From a virus (taxonomy: Duplodnaviria; Heunggongvirae; Uroviricota; Caudoviricetes): a DNA stretch of 16,232 bases. Below the pieces are notes generated by a model. The model saw only the letters and a list, made by a program, of their open reading frames with translations, was not told where the DNA came from and searched no databases. Every line of letters starts with the position of its first letter. The first letter of the stretch is position 1. Shown piece by piece: positions 7,236 to 14,936 of the stretch. The DNA lies in the IMG/VR virus record IMGVR_UViG_2562617151_000002, positions 1 through 16,232 of that record; one strand, 5' to 3'. The position numbers were made by a program, and so were the translations under genes.

Positions 7236-8318
7236 TTAGAACTGATAAACCAGACCTACAGCGACGATGTCGTCGGTATCAATACCAGCTGTTTTGGTAA
7301 ACTTACTATCGTCAATTAAGTTGATTTTGTAATCAACAAAAGTGGACATGTTTTTATTAAAGTAGTAAGTAGCACCGACATCGACATACTTGACTAAGTC
7401 TCGGTCACCATGAACACCAAGGTCTTTACCTTTTGACTGAAGGTAAGCAACAGATGGACGCAGACCGAAGTCAAACTGATATTGTGCTACTGCTTCAAAG
7501 TTTTGTGCTTTGTTTGCAATATGGTTATTACCAAAAACGGTCATATTCTGAGTTTCAGAATATGTGGTAGCCAGATAGATATTGTTCGCATCATATTTCA
7601 GGCCTGCAGCCCATACTTCCGCATTTTTGCCGGAGGCATTGAATTTGCTCTTACCATAGGCGACCTGACCGTCAGTGCGATCTGATTTAGCATAGGTTGC
7701 ACCCACGCCGAATCCTTCATACTCATAAGTAGTGGAGAAACCGAAACCATCACCATTGGCTTCAGTTACGTCAGTGCGGTCATTTTTACCCTGATACTGA
7801 GCAGCAAAGTTCAGGCCATCGACCAGACCAAAGAAGTCGTTGTTACGATAAGTTGCAACACCAGTAGTGCGACCAGTCATGAACACATCTGTTTGGGTCC
7901 AGGTATCACCACCGAATTCTGGCAGGACGTCAGTCCACGCACCGATGTCGTATGCTACACCGTAGTTACGGCCGTAATCGATTGAGCCGTAATCACCAAA
8001 TTTCAGGCCTGCAAATGCAAGACGGGTTTTGTCTTTGGAAGAACCTTGAGATTCAGCACGGTTGCCTTTGAATTCATATTCCCACTGACCGAAACCAGTC
8101 AGTTGATCGTTGATTTGGGTTTCACCTTTGAAGCCAAGACGGGCATAAGTAGTATCACCATCATCTGCATCATTAGAGGAGAAGTAGTGCTTGGCATTAA
8201 CTTTCCCGTATAGATCCAGCTTGTTACTGTCTTTATTATAAATTTCAGCTGCCTGAGCAGACATCGCCATCAGTACTGATGCAGCTACAGCAGAAATTGC
8301 CACTGTTAATTTTTTCAT
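7236..8318 (-). CDS. nmpC: Prophage-encoded general porin (OmpC/OmpF/PhoE family; NmpC/Lc type)
   Basis: 360-aa ORF with a signal peptide ([23 protein letters not shown]|AEIYNKD), porin motifs ([52 protein letters not shown]) and C-terminal VGLVYQF. It sits between Q and the holin on the opposite strand, as nmpC does in DLP12 and lc in PA-2. The exact symbol is uncertain. Confidence 0.85.
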
Positions 8319-8745
8319 TGTACGCCCTTTTTTTTGAACTATTATTAAAAAATGATGTCACTGCGCGATAAATATTCATCTAATCAATGCGATTATTTCA
8401 AGATGTAAGTTTTAGTTTCTCATTTAATTTGTGAAGTAGATCTCTATTTTTATCTAAACCTTTTCTATCTAATCCTATTCATGGCTCTTGTTTGAACGAA
8501 AATAAATCTATTAGCTAATTTATATTAATGGCACTTATTTATAAGAGATCTATAATTCTTTAGCTTAATTTAAACAAACTAAAAATAACATCGGAAATTA
8601 TTCATTGGTTATTTGTTGAAGTTTTCTTATGTATTTGTGGTGGTGTTTTGAACACTCGGTGGCATTCTCACAAATATCATTTAGTAGTTTACGTACGTAA
8701 AAAATTGGTTATGCTGTTAAGAGTGGTTACTTCGTCACACAGCTT
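8319..8745. promoter_or_regulatory. AT-rich non-coding region upstream of the porin and lysis cassette
   Basis: About 430 bp with no ORF of 60 aa or more and many A/T runs (8340-8640). Probably holds the porin promoter (minus strand) and possibly a late promoter, for example TTGAAC at 8648-8653 with AAATAT about 18 bp downstream. Confidence 0.4.
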
Positions 8746-8775
8746 AAACCCGCCGTCGAGCGGGTTTTTCCATTT
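8746..8775 (+). terminator. Rho-independent terminator candidate about 130 bp upstream of the holin (tR'-like)
   Basis: Stem AACCCGC/GCGGGTT (8747-8753 / 8760-8766) with loop CGTCGA, followed by TTTTCCATTTTTT on the plus strand. Confidence 0.5.
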
Positions 8776-8907
8776 TTTGAGTCTCGATATTAGCTGATAA
8801 CCCAATACCTGAGTTATTCACTGACTCCGAATCTGTTACGTTTCTGCCTTTATTGCGATACGTAGTATCCCCTTAATTTACACCCGCTTTGTCTGCGAGG
8901 TGGGGTT

Positions 8908-9123
8908 ATGAAATCCATGGATAAGTTAACAACGGGTGTCGCCTATGGCACCTCAGCAGGTAGTGCCGGATACTGGTTTTTACAGCTGCTAGATAAAGTC
9001 ACGCCCTCACAGTGGGCGGCAATTGGAGTGCTGGGTAGCCTGGTATTTGGCCTGCTGACGTACCTGACAAACCTTTATTTCAAGATTAAAGAAGATAAGC
9101 GCAAGGCTGCGAGAGGTGGATAA
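8908..9123 (+). CDS. S: Class II holin, phage-21 S-type (pinholin) with dual-start motif
   Basis: 71-aa ORF beginning MKSM (Met1 and Met4). Two hydrophobic segments and a basic C-terminus ([13 protein letters not shown]). Stop overlaps the endolysin start (TAATG). Confidence 0.85.
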
Positions 9124-9620
9124 TGCCTCCATCATTACGAAAAGCTGTTGCTGCTGCTATTGGTGGCGGGGCTATTGCTATAGCATCTGTGTTAATCACT
9201 GGCCCAAGTGGTAACGATGGTCTGGAAGGTGTGAGACATAATCCTTACAAAGACATAGTTGGTGTATGGACTGTATGTTACGGGCATACAGGAAAAGACA
9301 TCATTCCCGGTAAAACGTATACCGAAGCAGAGTGCAAAGCCCTCCTGAATAAAGACCTTGCCACTGTCGCCAGACAAATTAACCCGTACATCAAAGTCGA
9401 TATACCGGAAACAACGCGCGGCGCTCTTTACTCGTTCGTCTACAACGTGGGTGCTGGCAATTTCAGAACATCGACGCTTCTTCGCAAAATCAACCAGGGC
9501 GATATCAAAGGCGCATGTGACCAGCTACGTCGCTGGACATACGCTGGCGGTAAGCAATGGAAAGGGCTGATGACTCGCCGTGAGATTGAGCGTGAAGTCT
9601 GTTTGTGGGGGCAGCAATGA
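9123..9620 (+). CDS. R: SAR endolysin (T4-lysozyme-like muramidase, R21-type)
   Basis: N-terminal Gly/Ala-rich signal-anchor-release segment [30 protein letters not shown], followed by a lysozyme catalytic region ([25 protein letters not shown]). 165 aa. Confidence 0.9.
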
Positions 9621-10054
9621 GCAGGTTAACCGCGATTATCTCCGCTCTGGTTATCTGCATCATCGTCTGTCTGTCATGGGCTGTTAATCATTACCGTGAT
9701 AACGCCATTACCTATAAAGAACAGCGCGATAAAGCCACGTACATCATCGCTGACATGCAGAAGCGTCAACGTGACGTAGCAGAACTCGATGCCAGATATA
9801 CAAAGGAGCTTGCTGATGCTAACGCGACTATCGAAAGTCTCCGTGCTGATGTTTCTGCTGGGCGTAAGCGCCTGCAAGTCGCCGCCACCTGTGCAAAGTC
9901 AACGACCGGAGCCAGCGGCATGGGCGATGGAGAAAGCCCAGGACTTACAGCAGATGCTGAACTCAATTATTACCGTCTCCGAAGTGGAATCGACAAGATA
10001 ACCGCGCAGGTTAACTACCTGCAGGAATACATCAGGACGCAATGCCTGAATTAA
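9617..10054 (+). CDS. Rz: Rz i-spanin
   Basis: ATG 9617 overlaps the endolysin stop (ATGA). N-terminal TM segment ([20 protein letters not shown]), then a coiled-coil periplasmic domain. The ORF track extends to GTG 9605. Confidence 0.8.
9816..10001 (+). CDS. Rz1: Rz1 o-spanin lipoprotein, embedded in Rz in the +1 frame
   Basis: ATG 9816 preceded by AAAGGAG (9802-9808). Lipoprotein signal [20 protein letters not shown], then a Pro-rich mature region ([13 protein letters not shown]). Lies entirely within the Rz coordinates. Confidence 0.7.
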
Positions 10055-10255: not shown

Positions 10256-10753
10256 ATGAAATCATTAACCCTCTTCAATCAACCAATTCGTATCGGTGAA
10301 GATGGCATGATCTGCCTCACTGATATGTGGAAAGCCAGTGGTAAAAGTGAATCTGAATCGCCTTACCACTACCTGCGAAACAAGCAGACCAAAGAGTTCT
10401 TAGCCGAGCTGGAGAAAAACCACGAATCTGTGGTTTTTACTGAGCGCGGTGTACACGGTGGAACATATGGCGGGAAGTTTGTTGCTTACGATTATGCGGC
10501 TTGGTTAAACCCCGGGTTCAAGTACGCGGCCTATAAAGTCCTCGATGACTACTTCACCGGAGAACTTCAGCATCGCAACAGCTTAAGTGCGCAGCTCAAC
10601 ATGAAATGTCATGAGTTTGACCAGAAGAAAGACATGGCGAGCTTCTGCGGACAAGGGCTGGCAGCATGGCGCTATACGAAGCCAGTGTTGGTCGCTGAGA
10701 TTAACTCCCTGGCTAACCAGCTGCAGATTACGATCCCCGGGCTTCCGGGATGA
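10256..10753 (+). CDS. KilA-N domain protein
   Basis: ATG 10256 preceded by AGAGTAGG. Translation FNQPIRIGEDGMICLTDMWKASGK ... GTYGGKFVAYDYAAWLNPGFKYA fits the KilA-N/APSES-type fold pattern. Occupies the post-lysis position where bor sits in DLP12. Confidence 0.7.
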   Translation: MKSLTLFNQPIRIGEDGMICLTDMWKASGKSESESPYHYLRNKQTKEFLAELEKNHESVVFTERGVHGGTYGGKFVAYDYAAWLNPGFKYAAYKVLDDYFTGELQHRNSLSAQLNMKCHEFDQKKDMASFCGQGLAAWRYTKPVLVAEINSLANQLQITIPGLPG

Positions 10754-11007
10754 GTGATCGTGTTATTGAATGCGCCTCCAGAGCGGGGCGCGACTTCTCA
10801 GAGTTCATGAAAGGCGAGAAGGGCATGATGGAAGCATTGGCCTCGGTGGATGAGTTTGGCGAGCAGCTGCGCCTCAACGGCTGTGTCAATCATCACTTTG
10901 TTAGCTACATGATGCGGAACTCGATCATGCAGGCATTCATGGACATGGCAAAAGCCGAGAGGAAAGAAGAGCGCCGGCGTAAGCGAGCGGAAGCAAAAGC
11001 GAAGTAG
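10750..11007 (+). CDS. Hypothetical protein (85 aa) with basic C-terminal tail
   Basis: ATG 10750 overlaps the KilA-N stop (ATGA). C-terminus KAERKEERRRKRAEAKAK. No recognisable family. Confidence 0.5.
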   Translation: MSDRVIECASRAGRDFSEFMKGEKGMMEALASVDEFGEQLRLNGCVNHHFVSYMMRNSIMQAFMDMAKAERKEERRRKRAEAKAK

Positions 11008-11293
11008 CCATTACAAAGCCTATCTACGGGTGGGCTTGATAATGGCTTATACCCTACACGGGATAACTTAACTGATATCCCTTTTAAAGGATAAAGGTAT
11101 TCAAGCCTGACACATCATGCGCTGTATCGTCGCCGTGTTCCCGTATTAACAGAGACCGTAGCCCGACGGGGAACTCCTTCTGCGCGAGTGTGCGGGAATA
11201 ATCAAAAACGATGCACACCGGGGTTACCGGGTACACATATTTCATCATGCCAGCGAGTCCGGTTCTGGCACGGAAGAAACCGGACGTTATGAT

Positions 11294-11704
11294 TTAGTGC
11301 GGAAATATTTGTGTAGTGTTCTGAATGTTCTCAGTAAAGAGTAATGAATTATCAAAGGTATAGTAATACCTTTTGTTTTCGTGGATATTTGTAATCCATC
11401 TGAAAACCCCTGCTGTAGCAAGATTTTTCCTGTATTCGTAAAATGATAACTCTCCTGATTTGAATCCTTTTAAGGTGGCTTCTATAAGGCATTTATTTTT
11501 TGAAAATCTTACATTTACAACCTTACCCTGTCCTTTTATTAAAACCGTATTATCGTTTTCAAGAACAAGATGAATATTCTCTGTGGCTAAATAGTAAATG
11601 TAATGTGAGACATTGTGACGTTTTAGTTCAGAATAAAACCAGTGATAGTTTAAATTATTTCGCACTTTATCGAATATTTGTTTAAAAATGGCAACCTGAG
11701 CCAT
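11294..11704 (-). CDS. AT-rich cargo gene, hypothetical (possibly YbcV-like envelope-protein family)
   Basis: Visibly lower G+C than its flanks. The ATG at 11704-11702 has GGAAGG 8 nt upstream and gives 136 aa; the ORF track starts 5 codons earlier at 11719. Opposite strand to the late operon. The family guess rests on position and size only. Confidence 0.5.
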
Positions 11705-11761
11705 TGTAGTACCTTCCATGTGATATGAGGGGGCGTAGTCTGCACGATTATCTAGATTGCT

Positions 11762-11995
11762 TCAATCTGGTCTAACCTGTTTTCTGAGCAATTCAGTAAT
11801 GTCACTCTTTTCTTTGTTTGCTTCAGGCGAAACTCTTTTTTCTGAGCACAGTCTCCGGCGGCAGGCTTCAATGACCCAGGCTGAGAAATTCCCGGACCCT
11901 TTTTGAACAAGAGCGATGTTAATTTGTTCAATCATTTGGTTAGGAAAGCGGATGTTGCGGGTTGTTGTTCTGCGGGTTCTGTTCTTCGTTGACAT
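11762..11995 (-). CDS. Small basic ribbon-helix-helix-like putative DNA-binding protein
   Basis: 77-aa ORF. N-terminal basic stretch then IRFPNQMIEQINIALVQKGSGNFSAWVIEACRRRL looks like an Arc/MetJ-type strand-helix-helix. Lies 42 bp upstream of the AT-rich gene on the same strand. Confidence 0.45.
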   Translation of the reverse strand: MSTKNRTRRTTTRNIRFPNQMIEQINIALVQKGSGNFSAWVIEACRRRLCSEKRVSPEANKEKSDITELLRKQVRPD

Positions 11996-12059
11996 GAGGT
12001 TGCCCTGTATTCAGTGTCGCTGATTTGTATTGTCTGAAGTTGTTTTTACGTTAAGTTGA

Positions 12060-12376
12060 TGCAGATCAATTAATACGATACCTGCGTCATAATTGATTAT
12101 TTGACGTGGTTTGATGGCGTAGATGCACGTTGTGACATGTAGATGATAATTATTATCATTTTTCGGGTCCTTTCCGGCGATCCGACAGGTTACGGGGCGG
12201 CGACCTCGCGGGTTTTCGCTATTTATGAAAATTTTCCGGTTTAAGGCGTTTCCGTTCTTCTTCGTCGTAACTTAATGTTTTTATTTAAAATACCCCCTGA
12301 AAAGAAAGGAAACGACAGGTGCTGAAAACGAACTTTTGGGCCTCTGTCGTTTCCTTTCTCTGTTTTGGGCCGTGGA
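12060..12376. other. cos: Lambda-type cohesive-end site (cosQ-cosN-cosB)
   Basis: From my recollection of the lambda genome ends: ...CCGACAGGTTACG followed by cosN GGGCGGCGACCT at 12175-12186, then the cosB region CGCGGGTTTTCGCTATTTATGAAAATTTTCCGGTTTAAGGCG... up to the nu1 start, with only a few substitutions. Confidence 0.85.
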
Positions 12377-12383
12377 ATGAACA

Positions 12384-12457
12384 ATGGAAGTCAACAAAAA
12401 GCAGCTGGCTGACATTTTCGGTGCGAGTATCCGTACCATTCAGAACTGGCAGGAACA
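12384..12457 (+). pseudogene. nu1: Terminase small subunit nu1, 5' stub (first about 25 codons only)
   Basis: ATGGAAGTCAACAAAAAGCAGCTGGCTGACATTTTCGGTGCGAGTATCCGTACCATTCAGAACTGGCAGGAACA matches the lambda nu1 start (MEVNKKQLADIFGASIRTIQNWQE). Identity ends after 12457 and the frame stops soon after. Confidence 0.85.
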
Positions 12458-12661
12458 CCGGGCAGCATGGCGGACAGTCGGTCGCAGGCGTCCGGGAAGT
12501 TTGAGCAGAATAACCATGTGGTGATTAACAACGACGGCACGAACGGGCAGATAGGTCCGGCTGCTCTGAAGGCGGTGTATGACATGGCCCGCAAGGGTGC
12601 CCGTGATGAAATTCAGACACAGATGCGTGATGGTGGCCTGTTCTCCGGAGGTGGACGATGA
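12458..12661 (+). pseudogene. H: 3' remnant of tail tape-measure gene H
   Basis: Sequence after the junction encodes ...SQASGKFEQNNHVVINNDGTNGQIGPAALKAVYDMARKGARDEIQTQMRDGGLFSGGGR, and its stop overlaps the M start (ATGA) as in lambda. It is in a different frame from the nu1 stub. Confidence 0.8.
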
Positions 12662-12987
12662 AGACCTTCCGCTGGAAAGTGAAACCCGGTATGGATGTGG
12701 CTTCGGTCCCTTCTGTAAGAAAGGTGCGCTTTGGTGATGGCCATTCCCAGCGAGCGCCTGCCGGGCTGAATGCCAACCTGAAAACGTACAGCGTGACGCT
12801 TTCTGTCCCCCGTGAGGAGGCCACGGTACTGGAGTCGTTTCTGGAAGAGCACGGGGGCTGGAAATCCTTTCTGTGGACGCCGCCTTATGAGTGGCGGCAG
12901 ATAAAGGTGACCTGCGCAAAATGGTCGTCGCGGGTCAGTATGCTGCGTGTTGAGTTCAGCGCAGAGTTTGAACAGGTGGTGAACTGA
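12658..12987 (+). CDS. M: Minor tail protein M (intact)
   Basis: The 109-aa product (MKTFRWKVKPGMDVASVPSVRKVRFGDG...SAEFEQVVN) matches lambda gpM from memory over essentially its full length. Confidence 0.9.
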   Translation: MKTFRWKVKPGMDVASVPSVRKVRFGDGHSQRAPAGLNANLKTYSVTLSVPREEATVLESFLEEHGGWKSFLWTPPYEWRQIKVTCAKWSSRVSMLRVEFSAEFEQVVN

Positions 12988-14936
12988 TGCAGGATAACAG
13001 CGCACAGGCGGCAGCGGCCTCGCAGACTGCATCGGCAAACTCCGCAACAGCAGCTAAAAAATCAGAAACCAACGCGAAAAATAGCGAGACAGCCGCAAAG
13101 ACGAGCGAAACCAACGCAAAGTCCAGCCAGACGGCAGCGAAGACCAGCGAAACGAATGCTAAAGCCAGTGAAACTGCAGCAAAAAACAGCCAGGTTGCAG
13201 CAGCCCAAAGCGAGAGCGCGGCAGCCGGTTCTGCGACTTCAGCAGCTGGATCAGCAACTGCTGCGGCTAACAGCCAGAAAGCTGCGAAGACGAGTGAAAC
13301 TAACGCAAAGTCCAGCCAGACGGCAGCGAAGACCAGCGAAACGAATGCCAAAGCCAGTGAAACTGCGGCGAAAAGCAGTCAGGATGCAGCAGCCCAAAGC
13401 GAGAGTGCTGCAGCTGGTTCTGCAAGCGCGGCGGCTGCTTCTGCCACTGCATCAGCCAACAGTCAAAAAGCAGCAAAAACCAGTGAAACCAATGCAAAGA
13501 CAAGCGAGACTGCAGCGGCGAACTCGGCGAAAGCATCGGCAGCAAGCCAGACGGCAGCTAAAGCAAGCGAAGATGCAGCCAGAGAGTACGCAAGCCAGGC
13601 TGCGGAGCCGTATGAATATGTCTTACAGCCGCTGCCTGATGTGTGGATACCGTTTAACGATTCGCTGGATATGATTACGGGCTTTTCGCCATCATATAAA
13701 AAAATTGTTATTGGTGACGATGAAATAACGATGCCTGGCGACAAGATTGTTAAGTTTAAACGTGCATCGAAAGCAACCTATATTAACAAATCTGGTGTGC
13801 TGACAGAGGCTGCCATTGACGAGCCACGATTTGAACGTGATGGCCTGCTTATTGAGGGGCAAAGAACAAACTACATGCTCAATTCGGAAAGCCCTGCCAG
13901 TTGGGGGCGATCGTCAAATATGGATGTGCCCGAAACTGGGACGGATAGTTTTGGTTTTACCTATGGAAAGTTTGTCTGTAACGATTCTCTGATTGGGCAA
14001 ACCTCAGCCATTAATATGGCATCAATTGCTGCAACAAAGTCAGTTGATGTCTCAGGCGATAATAAATACGTGACAACCTCATGTCGTTTTAAAACAGAAC
14101 TGCAGGTAAGGTTGCGTATCCGGTTTGATAAATATGACGGTAGCGCAACAACTTTTCTTGGTGATGCGTATATTGATACACAAACGCTTGAAACTAATAT
14201 GACAGGCGGCGCTGCCTCAAGGATTACAGCGAGAGTCAGAAAGGACGAAGCTACCGGATGGATTTTTGCAGAGGCAACAATTCAGGCAATTGATGGGGAG
14301 TTAAAAATAGGTTCTCAGATACAGTATTCTCCTAAGCAGGGCGGGGCAACCGTATCTGGTGACTATATTTATCTGGCCACCCCACAAGTAGAAAATGGGC
14401 CTTGTGTATCATCTTTTATTATATCAGGAACGACGGCGGCGACCCGTGCAAGTGATATGGTAACTATTCCCGCAAGAAACAATATTTATAAACAACCTAT
14501 CAGTGTTCTTATTGAAGTTAATAAGAATTGGGATATTGTGCCAAACGGAGCACCAAGAATTTTTGACCTGAACGCAACATCATCATTCGCTGAAGAGTCT
14601 TTTATATTTGCATTCCGAGGGCCGACATCAACAGTTCTTCCTGGATCGGCATATGTTAGTGTTGGTTCCCCGTCAAGAGGAACTGGTAACAATGAAGTTG
14701 TAAACACTGGAATATATGGAGTTAAAATAGACAAAGATGGCGGCTTAGCAGCGTCGCTGAATGGTAACATTTCATCAAAAGTCAGTACTTCATGGGGTGG
14801 TGCTATAAAATCAACGGCAATAAGAATAGGAGGGCAGACAACTGCCGGAACGAGGCATTTGTTTGGACACATCAGGAATTTCAGAATATGGCATAAAGAA
14901 TTAACTGATGCGCAAATGGGGGAGAGTATTAAATGA
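12987..14936 (+). CDS. Side-tail-fibre-like protein; apparent fusion of the L start to an internal Stf repeat region, with a lectin-like C-terminal domain
   Basis: First 10 nt ATGCAGGATA equal the lambda L start (MQD), then the sequence switches to Ala-rich AKTSETNAKSSQTAAK repeats typical of Stf. The C-terminal approx 400 aa are non-repetitive and end in GHIRNFRIWHKELTDAQM, resembling the last strand of LamG/concanavalin-like jelly rolls. ATG overlaps the M stop. Confidence 0.7.
   Translation: MQDNSAQAAAASQTASANSATAAKKSETNAKNSETAAKTSETNAKSSQTAAKTSETNAKASETAAKNSQVAAAQSESAAAGSATSAAGSATAAANSQKAAKTSETNAKSSQTAAKTSETNAKASETAAKSSQDAAAQSESAAAGSASAAAASATASANSQKAAKTSETNAKTSETAAANSAKASAASQTAAKASEDAAREYASQAAEPYEYVLQPLPDVWIPFNDSLDMITGFSPSYKKIVIGDDEITMPGDKIVKFKRASKATYINKSGVLTEAAIDEPRFERDGLLIEGQRTNYMLNSESPASWGRSSNMDVPETGTDSFGFTYGKFVCNDSLIGQTSAINMASIAATKSVDVSGDNKYVTTSCRFKTELQVRLRIRFDKYDGSATTFLGDAYIDTQTLETNMTGGAASRITARVRKDEATGWIFAEATIQAIDGELKIGSQIQYSPKQGGATVSGDYIYLATPQVENGPCVSSFIISGTTAATRASDMVTIPARNNIYKQPISVLIEVNKNWDIVPNGAPRIFDLNATSSFAEESFIFAFRGPTSTVLPGSAYVSVGSPSRGTGNNEVVNTGIYGVKIDKDGGLAASLNGNISSKVSTSWGGAIKSTAIRIGGQTTAGTRHLFGHIRNFRIWHKELTDAQMGESIK
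13116..13234. repeat. Intragenic direct repeat, copy 1 (about 119 bp)
   Basis: GCAAAGTCCAGCCAGACGGCAGCGAAGACCAGCGAAACGAATGC... recurs 189 bp downstream with a handful of substitutions. Confidence 0.7.
13305..13423. repeat. Intragenic direct repeat, copy 2 (about 119 bp)
   Basis: Near-identical to 13116-13234. The 189-bp offset equals 63 codons, so the protein repeat stays in frame. Confidence 0.7.

Follow-up and report, generated by a model that had tools for sequence, protein, structure and literature searches.

In the Qin prophage of Escherichia coli K-12, ynfO (b4533) is followed by ydfO (b1549), and this is the closest described counterpart of the locus reported here. Qin agrees with the window (the whole stretch of 16,232 nucleotides of caudoviricete DNA that was analysed) in the families, order and strand relation of the two genes and in their 57-bp gap, and also in the lengths of ynfO (234 bp) and ydfO (411 bp) and in the 388 bp that separate ynfO from the small-terminase homologue, nohA in Qin. 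The two differ in the DUF1398 allele, which is only 75% identical to YdfO, and in the left neighbours, which are a KilA-N gene and an 85-aa ORF in the window and gnsB/ynfN/cspI in Qin. Homologues of both genes also lie in the same place and orientation beside cos in phage lambda, whose right end carries bor, lambdap78, lambdap79, an unannotated ylcI homologue and cos, and in the DLP12 prophage (borD-ybcV-ybcW-ylcI-nohD). Between cos and ynfO codon ~50, these elements are 96% identical to the window, and the lambda ylcI homologue, which is absent from the reference annotation, was detected by tblastn with 94.5% identity over residues 1–55. Unlike the window, lambda and DLP12 have an opposite-strand gene of ~560 bp, ybcW/lambdap79, between the two genes, a shorter and different YlcI tail, and bor, which is located further left.

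The locus also resembles lambdoid morons such as bor, the phi80 Tai immunity genes and the LT-II toxin genes, which likewise occupy a slot at the lysis–packaging junction, are transcribed in reverse or independently, deviate in composition, and are present in some related phages and absent from others. The literature recognises the site 5' of the packaging module as a hotspot for morons and immunity genes (PMC11364771; PMC3252337). Type II toxin-antitoxin systems with ribbon-helix-helix (RHH) antitoxins (ParDE, RelBE, and MazEF with an RHH-type MazE) resemble the locus in that a gene for a small RHH-like protein, variable in its C-terminal tail, precedes a second gene on the same strand; however, the two genes here do not obligately co-occur, the product of the second has no toxin fold, and no report describes it as toxic. 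Both families are already curated and K-12 carries annotations for the pair, and the analysis revealed no new kind of system. The features of the region are as follows.

11257–11285, no strand assigned: conserved hairpin GTCCGGTT...AACCGGAC, 9 bp beyond the DUF1398 stop codon and near the left edge of the variable slot
11294–11704, minus strand: DUF1398 gene of the YdfO/YbcV type, 136 aa; an upstream ATG at 11719 gives 141 aa
11705–11761, minus strand: 57-bp spacer between ynfO and the DUF1398 gene, with the alternative ATG (11719–11717) and GGAAGG (11712–11717) inside
11762–11995, minus strand: ynfO, YlcI/YnfO family (DUF3950), 77 aa, pI 10.9, with matches to PF13132 and NF041551
11762–11845, minus strand: variable C-terminal tail of YnfO, differing between the Qin type and the lambda/DLP12 type
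11846–11995, minus strand: conserved N-terminal core of YnfO, residues 1–50, with a basic arm and a probable ribbon-helix-helix DNA-binding domain
11996–12383, no strand assigned: divergent intergenic region, 388 bp long, from ynfO to the small-terminase (Nu1) gene, including cosN and an inverted repeat at 12065–12097
12195–12206, plus strand: cosN, an exact match to the lambda cohesive-end sequence GGGCGGCGACCT

The two genes correspond to minus-strand ORFs at 11294–11719 (141 aa from its first ATG) and 11762–11995 (77 aa). The initial annotation had combined a 136-aa protein with a gap of 42 bp; the 42 bp belong to the 141-aa reading only, and the 136-aa start, ATG 11704, gives an intergenic gap of 57 bp. 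In the NCBI annotation of an identical E. coli ST3 sequence, the 136-aa start is chosen and the small gene is named ynfO, and the Shine-Dalgarno-like motif GGAAGG is found 7 nt 5' of ATG 11704. The holin, lysozyme and Rz genes (8908–10054) are transcribed in the opposite direction to both genes, which lie left of cosN, confirming the proposed reverse-oriented pair between the lysis genes and cos; in phage DE3, a cos site is annotated at the position equivalent to that of cosN here. The pair had also been thought to sit where lambda carries bor, an assignment that we abandon, as lambda and DLP12 carry bor and also both homologues, and the place of bor in the window is taken by a KilA-N/ORF11CD3 gene and the 85-aa ORF. 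The 388-bp intergenic region retains 90% identity to a locus in which the synonymous sites of ynfO are near saturation, and scans for a minus-strand sigma-70 promoter for ynfO returned no convincing match, the best scoring 8/12.

The second gene is, as proposed, much more AT-rich than the rest of the element. A windowed calculation placed its G+C content at 31.7% (GC3 30%), clearly below the window mean of 47.8% (SD 6.2%, 426-bp windows), and only 1.9% of the 426-bp windows are as low; the remaining low-G+C windows fall at ~8143–8846, covering the 5' end of the porin gene and the porin–holin intergenic region. The G+C content of ynfO (44.4%) is ordinary for the window. The suggestion of a separate acquisition agrees with this deviant composition; the acquisition would be old and not recent, however, as the lambdoid DUF1398 alleles of Qin, DLP12, lambda and the window all have 31–33% G+C at a mutual dS of up to 0.67. 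In other Enterobacteriaceae, the G+C content of the DUF1398 homologue is below that of its own flanks in 19 of 19 loci. AT-richness is thus an old trait of the family and not the mark of a recent arrival.

The initial annotation had taken the AT-rich gene to be DUF1398/YbcV-like, and profile searches bore this out: residues 13–131 of its product cover the whole PF07166 domain (profile positions 1–119 of 119; E 3e-43, 147 bits, cutoff 22), and the protein matches the NMR structure of E. coli YdfO (PDB 2HH8; E 1e-69), to which it is 75% identical. Its fold is that of the solved YdfO, an internally duplicated, orphan alpha/beta fold for which no toxin relative was found, and the structure model is that of a small, globular protein free of membrane segments; neither a signal peptide nor a membrane segment was predicted from the 136-aa sequence. 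Between the alleles of the window, Qin, DLP12 and lambda, dN/dS is 0.2–0.37. Against PADLOC-DB 2.0, the protein gave only one match, at chance level (Csx23, E 0.025).

The product of the small gene matched Pfam PF13132 (DUF3950; E 2e-20, 72.8 bits, cutoff 25) and NCBIfam NF041551 (YlcI_YnfO_N; 35.2 bits, cutoff 30), is 97% identical to K-12 YnfO (b4533) and is basic, with a pI of 10.9 for the whole protein and 11.8 for the core. Comparison of codons 1–50 with three divergent alleles (loci L110, L111 and L113) gave a dS of 0.8–1.0 and a dN of ~0.05, i.e. a dN/dS of 0.05–0.09, and in one divergent-allele locus the core is retained although the upstream DNA is unrelated. These two observations show that ynfO is a genuine protein-coding gene, with its core under very strong purifying selection, and not a by-product of conserved cos DNA; the ORF on whose conservation in relatives the initial annotation had made its reading depend is indeed conserved. 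The divergent alleles were obtained through single-protein searches, a search for related loci with the YnfO alignment having returned only relatives of 97–100% identity. A tblastn match in the Pasteurella phage Pmp7 that falls under a 'transcriptional repressor' gene lies on the wrong strand of that gene and was discarded. YnfO had no match in PADLOC-DB 2.0, and we found no paper that assigns a function to YlcI/YnfO.

Both the place of ynfO and the type of its tail could be followed across related elements. It is the last gene before the packaging module, reading away from it and lying immediately left of cos, and it holds this same position in Qin, DLP12, lambda, L110, L111, L113 and an Stx2a phage, with the small-terminase (Nu1) gene as its packaging-side neighbour or, in HK97-like and Stx phages, an HNH gene. 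This showed ynfO to be a fixed resident of the lysis/packaging junction. Its tail is type-specific, one form belonging to the Qin type and another to the lambda/DLP12 type; the homology breakpoint against lambda/DLP12-type loci falls inside the tail, at about 11833–11850, and therefore accounts for the type-specific C-termini.

The initial annotation had described the small basic protein as RHH-like, of which the basic character stands and the RHH fold is plausible and not proven. An AlphaFold2 model of the YnfO monomer (mean pLDDT 70, core 84–87) contains an extended segment at residues 13–17, helices at 18–31 and 33–51, and a weak third helix; an RHH strand would form only in the dimer. YnfO has in common with the RHH repressors Arc, Mnt and AmrZ its size, a basic N-terminal arm and an 'xRxP' strand motif followed by two helices. 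In a profile comparison with these three proteins, whose sequences were verified against the PDB, the strand and first helix came into register (NIRFPNQMIEQI with FNLRWPREVLDLV), at an hhalign P of 0.0018 and a probability of only 15%, which is below significance. This sub-significant resemblance has no HMMER or Foldseek match beside it: a search of the YnfO-alignment profile against PDB sequences returned nothing at E up to 10, no RHH family in Pfam matched at E up to 10, and Foldseek of the model against the PDB gave two meaningless matches only. We regard an RHH fold for YnfO as probable, not proven.

Next, we surveyed the spread of the region. A search of 5426 complete E. coli genomes located a 1451-bp segment around the pair in 4897 of them (90%), at 13,057 places with a median of two per genome; the segment also occurs in 262 phage records and in phage lambda itself, and phage PhiR49_1 and E. 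coli ST3 carry it with 100% identity. Few prophage genes are as widespread in the species as these two, which are often present in multiple copies and form part of its uncharacterised 'y-ome'. Alignment of related loci yielded a conserved block at 12450–11833 (cos to ynfO codon ~50), a variable slot at 11833–11232 and a second conserved block at 11232–11117. Among related phages, the slot holds DUF1398 alone, ybcW together with DUF1398, or other cassettes. The description of the pair as cargo accordingly holds for the DUF1398 gene, which lies in this slot of variable content between conserved flanks and shows two hallmarks of a moron, presence or absence between conserved flanks and deviant composition; several AT-rich cassettes were shown to alternate downstream of the ynfO core, this gene being one of them.

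Within the Qin type, DUF1398 lies ~60 bp downstream of a 97–100% identical YnfO in 79 of 80 viral contigs, which is compatible with simple linkage and equally with a functional pair, and the Qin-type YnfO tail is combined with either of two DUF1398 alleles that are 25% apart. Across 50,697 phage records searched by tblastn, the YnfO core was detected in 153, of which 66 are Stx-converting, and DUF1398 in 43, none of them Stx phages; at least 110 of the 153 YlcI/YnfO records therefore lack DUF1398. Individual loci illustrate the other contents: L110 has the order Nu1, cos, ylcI, a different AT-rich cassette and Rz1; L113 and an Stx2a phage have an HNH endonuclease gene facing ylcI, followed by lysis genes; and L106 has ylcI, ybcW and other cargo. 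At 20 distant loci, found with an alignment of a five-member DUF1398 subgroup in Kluyvera, Pseudocitrobacter, Klebsiella, Raoultella and Salmonella diarizonae, no YnfO-like gene lay within 3 kb of the DUF1398 homologue (0/20), and the third K-12 paralogue, ycgX, is a stand-alone gene adjoining bluR, without YnfO. The comparison showed ynfO and the DUF1398 gene to be two independent accessory genes that are neighbours in a variable slot, not a matched pair.

Published data on homologues bear mainly on the DUF1398 genes. Knock-down of the lambda DUF1398 gene, lambdap78, by CRISPRi left plating unaffected (PMC10695390). Transcripts of ydfO rose about 100-fold under ionic-liquid stress, and YdfO overexpression was reported to increase resistance to oxidative stress (PMC4077768). 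PdhR was bound at ybcV/ybcW and inside ydfO, and ybcV mRNA was down tenfold in a pdhR mutant (PMC7660256); ydfO is also one of four DicC-responsive Qin genes. Overproduction of T4 MotB, which alters H-NS-dependent repression, raised ybcV and ybcW more than 1000-fold (PMC7827196), an effect for which prophage induction is an alternative to lost H-NS silencing. All of these expression data come from the K-12 paralogues and thus from elements other than that of the window. The gene that separates the two in lambda, lambdap79, triggers the Vulcan NADase defence, and lambda escapers of Vulcan drop it through recombination with Qin (bioRxiv 10.64898/2026.09.04.749371); this recombination produces exactly the ynfO–DUF1398 adjacency of the window.

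The explanation that we favour, and hold with somewhat better than even confidence when the roles below are included, is that the locus is a Qin-type ynfO-ydfO arrangement of two independent accessory genes set against the late operon. YnfO would act as an Arc-like RHH dimer, a DNA-binding transcriptional regulator that probably represses its own leftward promoter, the scans having recognised no such promoter; assuming co-transcription across the 57-bp same-strand gap, this autoregulation would also set DUF1398 expression. The DUF1398 protein may be a non-toxic cytoplasmic factor of host physiology or stress, expressed from the prophage and probably kept down by silencing of AT-rich DNA, and is expected to be neither a toxin nor a virion part. 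Both genes would be dispensable for lytic growth.

Alternatively, YnfO could act on late or packaging functions of the phage, for example by binding near cos with effects on read-through, cos use or superinfecting relatives, with DUF1398 as an unrelated passenger. The constant place and outward orientation of YnfO beside two unrelated packaging modules would suit such a role, as would the conservation of its core, which is far above that of any neighbouring cargo, and the reported occurrence of YlcI/YnfO in capsid-forming PICIs that carry their own terminase genes (PMC13612085). Nevertheless, we consider it unlikely: the upstream DNA of the Nu1 type and the HNH type is unrelated, with no shared binding site seen, and late transcription runs antisense through ynfO.

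The initial annotation had pointed out that an RHH protein with a downstream partner is the layout of many antitoxin-toxin and exclusion modules. Read in this way, the locus would be a type II toxin-antitoxin or abortive-infection/exclusion module in which YnfO, as an RHH antitoxin, uses its variable tail to neutralise a DUF1398 toxin that is released on phage attack or when YnfO is lost. The genomic evidence makes this quite improbable. The families occur independently in both directions, with DUF1398 missing from at least 110 of 153 YlcI/YnfO phage records and YnfO from 20 of 20 distant DUF1398 loci and from ycgX; the opposite-strand ybcW/lambdap79 stands between the two genes in lambda and DLP12; and one YnfO tail is found with DUF1398 alleles differing by 25%. 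There is, moreover, no defence-model match in PADLOC and no toxin relative of the DUF1398 fold. Experimental reports point the same way, as the NMR work on YdfO (2HH8) relied on overproduction of the protein and YdfO overexpression was reported as protective, both in hosts that carried ynfO/ylcI copies, and the lambdap78 knock-down was neutral for plating.

A broader version would make YnfO a universal 'gatekeeper' of the cargo slot at the lysis–packaging junction of lambdoid phages, its almost invariant RHH-like domain controlling any downstream cassette and its cassette-specific tail contacting the cargo product, such that, in the Qin-type layout, YnfO with DUF1398 would constitute an undescribed two-part prophage defence or exclusion switch; to this we attach a very slim chance. 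Hardly credible is a third assignment, in which the DUF1398 protein is a virion part. It derives from PHROG 413 and several RefSeq records, labelled 'head protein', and from the GenBank records of lambda and DE3, labelled 'putative envelope protein'. The gene, however, reads against the late operon and is dispensable in lambda, it is missing from most of the lambdoid phages that share these head genes, stand-alone chromosomal paralogues exist, and the modelled protein is small, globular and without membrane segments. To our knowledge, the DUF1398 protein is not among the known head proteins of lambda, and both labels appear to be propagated annotation. Finally, that ynfO is no gene at all, its conservation stemming from cis-acting DNA beside cos, has a near-negligible probability, for although the neighbouring non-coding DNA is itself 90–97% conserved and no gene is annotated at this place in the lambda reference, divergent alleles differ at about half of their synonymous sites (dS 0.8–1.0) with a dN of 0.05, and the core is kept beside unrelated upstream DNA as well.

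The analysis thus settles that the two genes are no matched pair, the small protein being strongly selected and locked in position and the AT-rich gene an exchangeable passenger, and it narrows the sensible experiments to the DNA-binding targets of YnfO and to a physiological or phage-challenge phenotype of DUF1398.

Several further elements were considered at the left edge of the slot. A 54-aa ORF at 11084–11248 is broken in relatives by 1-nt and 11/12-nt indels and was rejected as a gene, and an RNA-structure reading of the conserved 116-bp block left of the slot was likewise set aside, its folding being not above that of shuffled sequences (z +0.8 and +1.3). An Rfam scan of 10950–12400 gave zero matches at the gathering score and chance-level ones only. 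The hairpin at 11257–11285 is not a canonical terminator, because the minus strand has no U-tract after the stem. It folds better than expected, with z-scores of -3.1 and -3.3 on the two strands and none of 200 shuffles folding equally well, and it is kept in six of six aligned loci, two of which lack DUF1398; in the Qin version, the stem is changed on both sides with the pairing retained.

Phage lambda itself encodes a homologue of YlcI/YnfO, the small basic protein family to which the ynfO product of the window belongs, and the gene lies about 200 bp to the left of cos, at the following positions:

L002 (phage DE3) 3772-3936, corresponding to lambda about 48149-48304: lambda YlcI/YnfO homologue.

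The classical lambda annotation (J02459, DE3) does not include this gene, and in most lambda-like records the homologue is labelled only as 'hypothetical protein' or carries no label. Dozens of noisy YlcI variants (proteins P0020-P0119) originate from ENA contigs that are about 3.4-3.6 kb long. Instead of natural diversity, they seem to represent a single lambda fragment read with many errors, and they make the family seem larger.

Near the left end of the variable slot that holds the DUF1398 gene, a hairpin (11257-11285, GTCCGGTT...AACCGGAC) is conserved, with a folding z-score of about -3.2 on either strand. It is kept even where the locus lacks DUF1398, and the version in the K-12 prophage Qin carries a change on both sides. 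On the minus strand, no U-tract follows the hairpin. The element may serve in processing or stability, or it may mark a recombination boundary. To the left of the slot lies a block of about 116 bp (11117-11232), whose conservation is 89-90% in L110 and L113, two phages with different neighbouring genes, and about 80% in lambda and the K-12 prophage DLP12. The block is absent from Qin, and its folding was no better than that of shuffled sequence. A 54-aa ORF spanning it (11084-11248) was rejected as a candidate gene, being disrupted in relatives by indels.

In L110, a relative that lacks DUF1398, a different AT-rich cassette (L110 3190-3620) occupies the slot after the YlcI gene; inspection by eye suggests that this cassette includes a short ORF on the strand of the late operon, encoding about 50 hydrophobic-rich residues. 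Many distant DUF1398 genes, from Kluyvera and related genomes (L086-L105), have a conserved, divergent 74-aa ORF (MLEGYFDLDGATG...AIQDAL) about 250 bp upstream, and have among their neighbours genes such as umuDC, dinI and a cold-shock-domain gene. Together, this ORF and these neighbours hint at a stress-response setting for the distant DUF1398 genes outside prophages.

At the place of bor in lambda and DLP12, the window encodes a 165-aa KilA-N/ORF11CD3 protein together with an 85-aa ORF (10256-11007), and in an Stx2a phage these two genes likewise lie ahead of the YlcI homologue. The KilA-N protein weakly matches PDC-S22, a candidate defence model (E 1.2e-8). A second cargo gene in reverse orientation is located further left:

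7236-8318, minus strand: OmpC/NmpC-like porin gene, flanked by the genes for the Q antiterminator and the holin (window 7236-8907).

After this gene, the window reaches its highest AT content (about 8250-8850, 27-35% G+C).

Close to cos, a near-perfect palindrome (ATGATAATTATTATCAT, 12130-12159) lies 36-53 bp to the left of cosN and coincides with the region's best match to a promoter (10/12, plus strand), which is directed at cos and the small-terminase gene Nu1. Likeness of Nu1 (12384-12990 region) to intact relatives is limited to its first 74 nt, ending at about 12457, beyond which it is fused to the end of a tape-measure gene and to a gene for a minor tail protein (12658-12987), with a tail-fibre gene directly after. 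When 5,426 complete E. coli genomes were searched, none had this junction as a contiguous match. Lacking the head genes and most of the tail genes, the prophage copy in the window is defective. The tail-fibre protein comprises 649 aa, the N-terminal third of which consists of long Ala/Ser/Thr/Lys-rich repeats (AAKTSETNAK..., window 12987-13700), and these repeats account for the strongest AT skew in the window (0.4-0.6).
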